Positions 1-98 of a DNA stretch of 6,387 nt are shown here, one piece after another. Position 1 is the first letter of the stretch, and each line of letters starts with the position of its first letter. Source of the stretch: a virus (lineage: Duplodnaviria > Heunggongvirae > Uroviricota > Caudoviricetes); the IMG/VR virus record IMGVR_UViG_2706794666_000010, one strand, 5' to 3'. A model generated the notes under the pieces. The model was not told the origin of the DNA. It was given only the letters and a program-made list of their open reading frames with translations, and made no database searches. A program made the translations under genes and the position numbers.

Positions 1-98
1 GGGGAATATCTCCCCGGCAGCCTTCAGGGAAAAATATCATCAGATGGCTGCTTAAAAAAAGAACAAATGGTAGTGTCCGCTATTGCCAGTACACCTCA
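1..98. repeat. Left arm of a perfect 98-bp inverted repeat (partner 6290..6387)
   Basis: Bases 1..98 are the exact reverse complement of 6290..6387; identity stops abruptly at 98/99 (left ...cctcAGG, right-arm reverse complement ...cctcATC). The arm contains a 5-bp stem-loop (ggggaATATCtcccc) at the extreme end and the first 32 nt of an ORF. Confidence 0.9.

Follow-up and report, generated by a model that had tools for sequence, protein, structure and literature searches.

The stretch of DNA analysed here, referred to below as the window, is 6,387 nucleotides long (IMG/VR record IMGVR_UViG_2706794666_000010) and consists of two short terminal arms, at positions 1-98 and 6290-6387, and a single-copy remnant of a lambdoid prophage between them, at positions 99-6289. 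As judged from its ORFs, its tRNA and Rfam calls and its collinearity with the prophage of Escherichia coli 042, the remnant is a late-regulatory block encoded on the minus strand. It comprises (i) a truncated gene for an 87-aa protein, followed by genes for 55-aa and 114-aa proteins, (ii) a hok/sok locus and a gene for a 90-aa protein, (iii) genes for a DUF968 protein, the RusA protein, a Q-type antiterminator, a 65-aa protein and a DNA methyltransferase of the N6/N4 type, and (iv) the tRNA genes tRNA-Met(CAT)/Arg/Arg. The small ORFs of this block are of the kind found in nin regions. The segment is about 95% identical to, and collinear with, the prophages of E. coli 042, ABU 83972 and many other strains; the only exception from this collinearity is a stretch of roughly 2 kb between the hok and DUF968 regions, observed only in strain 042. 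The prophage remnant is degraded and adjoins ompW.

Two runs of N shorten the window relative to the corresponding chromosomal locus of Shigella sonnei (L006, one of the loci described below): the run at 280-543 (264 N) replaces 306 nt, and the run at 3383-3648 (266 N) replaces 398 nt. Thus, the true length of the segment between the two arms is 6,365 bp. The first run hides a third tRNA gene, tRNA-Arg TCT, and the second hides the boundary between the genes for DUF968 (352 aa) and RusA (126 aa); an ORF of 435 aa at positions 3240-4547 was accordingly discarded as an artefact of reading through N. The tRNA gene at positions 675-750 on the minus strand is called tRNA-Met (CAT) by ARAGORN, and the homologous phage tRNA is annotated as tRNA-Ile in RefSeq; it is presumably a lysidine-modified tRNA of the Ile2 type, as in the ileZ-argN-argO clusters of lambdoid phages. 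The hok/sok-type locus at positions 5125-5450, also on the minus strand, is a complete type I toxin-antitoxin system that combines an ORF of the Hok/Gef family with a full-length Rfam match to sok, scoring 112 bits against a gathering score of 59.

Both arms are the right end of IS600

A repeat search over the whole window returned the arms 1-98 and 6290-6387 as an inverted repeat of 98 nt with 100% complementarity and a spacing of 6191 nt, so the initial annotation was correct in describing positions 1-98 as the reverse complement of 6290-6387 with zero mismatches. The second-best inverted repeat of the window has 26 nt and 73% complementarity, and therefore the perfect 98-mer does not arise by chance. 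Since the repeat extends to the first and the last base of the window, its outer limit is set by the extent of the sequence rather than by a biological boundary; the inner limit is sharp. The abrupt loss of identity between the arms, which had also been pointed out previously, was reproduced in a base-by-base comparison that placed the divergence exactly at the tip of an insertion sequence, IS600, and it is because this point coincides with the IS tip that the identity halts so abruptly inside the window.

Both arms are the right end (IRR) of IS600, a 1,264-bp insertion sequence of the IS3 family. Taken alone, the 98-nt arm is present in 2,887 of the 5,426 finished E. coli genomes, at up to 43 places per genome and on plasmids as well, and in these genomes it always lies under the annotation 'IS3-like element IS600 family transposase'. 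For example, E. coli E2865 (L002) has a 1,264-bp IS600, with the ends TGAGG...CCTCA and a duplicated target (GCG/GCG), whose very tip is the start of the arm; the stop codon of the transposase is located 44 nt from this tip. The IS600 copies in finished genomes are 1,264 bp long and have TG...CA tips with imperfect terminal inverted repeats: the tips read TGAGGT... and ...ACCTCA, and the left (IRL) and right (IRR) ends agree at 20 of their first 29 positions. Both arms of the window combine IS600 identity with this type of tip.

The two arms have the same composition, namely 43 nt of non-coding end, a stop codon and the final 17 OrfB codons (...GNISPAAFREKYHQMAA*). The left arm (1-98, plus strand) belongs to the copy on the tRNA side, here called copy B, and shows 100% identity to the final 98 nt of annotated IS600. 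In this arm, positions 2-52 encode the last 17 OrfB residues, positions 53-55 are the stop codon, and positions 56-98 form the non-coding right end with the IRR, ending in ...ACACCTCA; the transposase reads on the plus strand. The right arm (6290-6387, minus strand) belongs to the other copy, copy A, and represents the same end (IRR) in the opposite orientation, with the transposase reading on the minus strand. The IRRs of both copies point towards the segment, which is therefore bracketed by one and the same IS end in opposite orientations. The perfect 98-bp inverted repeat is thus the visible tip of two full-length IS600 copies that lie in opposite orientation on either side of the prophage remnant.

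The element seen in the window does not differ in kind from IS600 as it is known (IS3 family, IS3 group, expanded in Shigella), of which 98 nt per copy are visible here. The features of a full element, i.e. a length of about 1.26 kb, OrfA and OrfB, programmed -1 frameshifting and a DDE/rve domain, were found in eight long loci of S. sonnei with 99.96-100% identity to the window. The IS600 products in the long S. sonnei loci have either 385 aa or 100 + 272 aa and match HTH_Tnp_1, HTH_21, rve and rve_3, and a 'programmed frameshift' is annotated for the IS600 transposase in RefSeq. IS600 is one of five insertion sequences expanded in all Shigella species, and its expansion in S. sonnei has been documented (PMC7373316).

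Each arm is followed on its inner side by the triplet GGA (TCC on the minus strand), at positions 99-101 beside copy B and at positions 6287-6289 beside copy A. The former was recognized as the inner copy of a 3-bp target-site duplication by comparing the flanks of L006-like loci with an uninterrupted reference, and the latter by reference to the 87-aa gene, which reads ...GATCGCTGTCCATCACCG at this point. We considered that the two triplets, located on the same strand beside both arms, could form one shared target duplication, and rejected this assignment; they are the inner copies of two separate TCC duplications. Target duplications of 3 bp were thereby observed in three cases: GCG/GCG in E. 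coli E2865, TCC/TCC for copy B, and TCC on both separated pieces of the gene interrupted by copy A.

The insertion of copy A has generated a chimeric gene. The ORF of 76 codons at positions 6091-6321 on the minus strand takes its ATG and about 10-11 codons (6290-6321) from the right end of IS600, and the remainder (6091-6289) corresponds to codons 23-87 of the phage gene for the 87-aa protein. Alignment of the 76-aa and 87-aa products demonstrated that the intact phage protein begins with MATLTKKERAWLNELQEVLDRCPSPKK..., whereas the window lacks the first 22 codons and has in their place the ATG and ten codons from the IS600 end (MVVSAIASTPH|PSPKK...). The initial annotation regarded the right arm as holding the 5' end of the first gene in the minus-strand operon; an ORF does start there, but its start is IS600 fused to the 87-aa gene without the first 22 codons. 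An IS end can therefore supply a start codon, and the resulting chimera has spread in databases as a 'hypothetical/prophage protein [Shigella sonnei]' (UniProt Q3Z0Y9, Q3Z0Y9_SHISS) found on 832 contigs.

The left arm has the same ATG because it is the same IS end. As had been noted, the frame opened by this start soon meets a stop: it is a fortuitous ORF of 21 codons (MVVSAIASTPQDSGHVMPVSR*) at positions 67-132 on the plus strand that begins inside the right end of IS600 and reads out into intergenic prophage DNA. The initial annotation interpreted the left arm as a truncated inverted copy of the start of the 76-aa gene. Since the shared ATG belongs to one IS end and the left-arm frame ends in intergenic DNA, this direction of copying is wrong; each arm represents the final 98 nt of IS600. 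The converging minus-strand ORF, listed previously with 33 codons at 108-206, is present as a 34-codon ORF at 108-212, but the finished E. coli genomes have no annotated gene in the stretch 98-279.

Junctions and insertion sites in Shigella sonnei

Comparison with related prophages, which the initial annotation had proposed as a way to recover the ancestral arrangement, was informative on both sides. Uninterrupted E. coli prophages (left site, ATCC 11775; right site, E2865) diverge from the window, base by base, precisely at the IS tip, i.e. at 98/99 and 6289/6290. Likewise, the matches of the interior in the finished E. coli genomes (n=5,426) stop at exactly positions 98 and 6289, and neither junction occurs in any of these 5,426 genomes; the left junction also gave 0 matches in a scan of a collection of species-representative genomes. 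The junctions are missing from the finished E. coli set because Shigella genomes are not part of that collection. For a time this absence was taken as support for an assembly artefact, an argument that was dropped once Shigella genomes had been reached via the chimeric ORF.

The chimeric ORF is specific to its junction, and so its exact sequence could be looked up in an assembly collection. It is listed in 795 blocks of the collection, 83 of them on contigs of more than 1 Mb; in 599 of the 795 blocks the longest contig bearing the ORF has only 2-10 kb. The accessions returned include those of the S. sonnei strains 2015C-3566 (CP022457) and UKMCC1015 (CP060117). We read 25 long contigs, among which ten distinct places were shown, a place being shown separately whenever the neighboring genes differed. 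The ten loci lie on chromosome-scale contigs of 4.8-5.0 Mb, mostly single-record finished chromosomes.

Eight of the ten loci have the same structure: a full IS600 on the plus strand, then 6,365 bp, then a full IS600 on the minus strand. Both IS600 copies in these loci are 1,264 bp long (within 1-2 nt in three loci). The window is 99.96-100% identical to the eight two-copy loci, and L006 matches it at 100% of the non-N positions, both junctions included. In L006, copies A and B have the same sequence; in other genomes, 1-3 positions differ between them. The full copies that flank the segment were seen in the matching S. sonnei genomes, not in the isolate behind the window.

The initial annotation took the repeat to look like a recombination or inversion junction (98/99 and 6289/6290), consistent with a high density of Chi sites. 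They are indeed rearrangement junctions that exist in the genome, but they were formed by IS600 insertions with 3-bp target duplications and not by Chi/RecBCD. The enrichment of Chi (GCTGGTGG) itself is real: the window contains 10 sites at positions 1144-5525, 4 on the plus and 6 on the minus strand, in 5,857 non-N bases, compared with 0.24 expected from shuffled sequences. This corresponds to 1.7 sites per kb in the window versus 0.6-0.75 per kb in related loci taken whole; in L006, 10 of 13 sites fall within the segment between the IS copies. The suggested link of this density to the repeat junction does not hold, as no Chi site was found in the arms or in IS600, either in the window or in L006.

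Copy B is a simple insertion into the spacer that separates the phage tRNA genes from the genes for an esterase of the SASA family and a holin. Its flanks read ...GCTATCC|IS600|TCCTTCCAGG in L006 and similar loci, versus ...GCTATCCTTCCAGG in the uninterrupted reference; the insertion is accompanied by a TCC/TCC duplication, and its outer flank is collinear with the reference into the esterase and holin genes. Copy A was inserted at a TCC within the 87-aa phage gene. The 3' piece of this gene starts with TCC beside the IRR, and the 5' piece, located about 3.4 kb away in inverted orientation, ends with TCC; the triplets of the two pieces correspond to a single triplet of the reference gene.

Two loci, L007 and L012 (the latter being UKMCC1015), have copy A and lack copy B. 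Therefore, the two insertions were sequential and independent. The presence or absence of the second IS600 copy could serve as a lineage marker in S. sonnei. The same two loci carry 250 extra bases (11506-11755 in L007) at the point corresponding to window position 4816/4817, including a Rem-like gene (PF27490), that are missing from the window and from the two-copy genomes.

A rearrangement has affected the outer flank of copy A. In L006 (6192-8768) an inversion and a deletion were observed, with one breakpoint precisely where the IRL of copy A ends; the first 66 nt of the gene for the 87-aa protein, together with its TCC, are fused, in inverted orientation and without an IS, to a truncated prophage integrase gene beside ompW. 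A clean inversion with two breakpoints, between the IS tip and the integrase gene, was considered and rejected: the remainder of the integrase gene does not adjoin the IRL tip, and therefore the event is an inversion plus deletion. The eight bases at the integrase breakpoint, ACACCACA, agree with the IRR tip, ACACCTCA, at 7 of 8 positions, reflecting either the use of a pseudo-end or chance. As a remote possibility, the outer rearrangement of copy A would be a transposase-driven inversion-deletion without duplication of the IS that used such an IS600-like pseudo-end inside the prophage integrase gene. In another locus, L014 (8754-8768; CP045932.1), copy A has a different IRL flank (GGCTAAGCTGATTAG|) and different upstream genes (Dam, resolvase), which indicates a further IS600-linked rearrangement. 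Such rearranged flanks are commonly left behind by IS-driven reshuffling in Shigella.

Alternative explanations of the inverted repeat

Four other explanations of the repeat were weighed against two independent IS600 insertions. The initial annotation had allowed for a fold-back chimera. In such a contig one end is mistakenly joined, as a reversed copy, to the other, and one of the junctions does not exist in the genome. The perfection of the repeat, its location exactly at both contig ends and the absence of the junctions from all 5,426 finished E. coli genomes agree with such an artefact. However, both junctions are present in eight chromosome-scale contigs of S. sonnei, where each leads into a complete 1,264-bp IS600, and each is placed at the exact IS tip adjoining a TCC target triplet, which refutes the chimera and leaves it a probability close to zero. 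An equally negligible probability is assigned to the view, likewise refuted, that both arms derive from the promoter-proximal part of a phage gene, as diverged or duplicated copies. Although both arms do contain the same ATG and ten codons, the sequence that they share is IS600, with thousands of occurrences in unrelated contexts, and the real start of the phage gene, MATLTKKERAWLNELQEVLDRC..., is absent from the window.

The remaining two explanations accept the IS600 copies and concern the segment between them. Two inverted copies of one IS around a cargo with hok/sok, a methyltransferase and tRNAs bring to mind a composite transposon, in which IS600, the 6.4-kb cargo and IS600 arrived as one unit, and the geometry is indeed that of Tn10/IS10 and Tn5/IS50, where inverted copies of one IS bracket the cargo with the same IS end inward. 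Unlike these transposons, the unit described here has no target duplication around it as a whole, its outer flanks being unequal (TTT versus TCC), and the two IS arrived separately, since copy B has its own TCC/TCC duplication and genomes with copy A alone exist. Nor is the cargo foreign: it is collinear with the ancestral prophage, in its original place, and continues into the SASA esterase and holin genes past copy B. Among the places returned by the ORF look-up, no IS600-cargo-IS600 unit was found at an unrelated site with a 3-bp direct repeat. There is no evidence that the IS600-flanked segment ever moved as one, and we consider a composite transposon very improbable, if slightly less so than the two preceding explanations. 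Somewhat less remote, yet still quite unlikely, is an invertible segment, another reading offered in the initial annotation, in which recombination between the inverted 1,264-bp copies flips the 6.4-kb segment, so that its orientations coexist or alternate between strains. The arms do belong to long inverted repeats that are able, in principle, to invert: identical inverted repeats of 1.26 kb only 6.4 kb apart are a competent substrate for RecA, and IS600-linked reshuffling is evident on the outer side of copy A. However, all eight two-copy loci have the same orientation, with the 76-aa ORF after copy A and the methyltransferase and tRNA genes before copy B and the SASA esterase gene, and a flipped arrangement was seen at none of the ten distinct places that the 25 long contigs yielded. 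In addition, the target duplication of copy B is intact across the element, while a single flip would separate its two copies. By a narrow margin the least improbable of these ideas, though still a long shot, is that the 6.4-kb module (hok/sok, DUF968, RusA, Q antiterminator, methyltransferase and tRNAs) is an invertible cassette flipping in a sub-population of cells; if so, each flip would break or restore the connection between the Q antiterminator and the lysis genes downstream of it.

Contig ends within the two IS600 copies

The explanation that we favor, and hold to be nearly certain, is that the contig ends inside two inverted full-length copies of IS600 in the S. sonnei prophage beside ompW. 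The window would be a short-read contig of S. sonnei, or an equivalent piece, that spans the single-copy DNA between these copies. IS600 inserted twice and independently, copy A into the 87-aa gene at one TCC and copy B into the spacer between the tRNA and SASA-holin genes at another TCC, probably by the copy-out/paste-in route described for the IS3 family. Copy-out/paste-in transposition via a circular intermediate is established for IS3-family elements such as IS911, IS2 and IS3.

IS600 is a multi-copy element, and with no or almost no sequence difference between the two copies an assembler is unable to read through them, so that the contig breaks off at a depth of 98 nt in each. A stop at a fixed depth would yield a perfect terminal inverted repeat, with its inner edge at the IS tip and its outer edge at the contig end. 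This corresponds to the repeat-induced breaks of short-read assemblies based on de Bruijn graphs, in which a unique segment between collapsed repeats retains a repeat piece of fixed length at each end, and inverted repeat copies produce reverse-complementary ends. As for the length itself, we infer from general knowledge of such assemblies that the depth of 98 nt is the overlap length used by the assembler, e.g. k-1 with k=99. The cut of the contig 98 nt inside each repeat copy is the one true assembly effect at this locus, and the feature as a whole is an already known element, IS600, seen via an ordinary effect of assembly.

This locus adds one more case to the documented degradation of S. 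sonnei prophages by the expansion of IS600. It also calls for caution, in that a perfect inverted repeat reaching both ends of a short contig points to a unique segment between inverted collapsed repeats and not to a new element. A break of this kind is supported by other assemblies, in most of which the chimeric ORF lies on short contigs (2-10 kb in 599 of 795 blocks). An independent draft contig of S. sonnei, LXVB01000264.1 (L017), breaks 47 nt inside the same IS600 copy; since this contig begins with the last 47 nt of IS600 (positions 1-47), the gene caller reports there a chimeric ORF of 81 aa marked as 'partial'.
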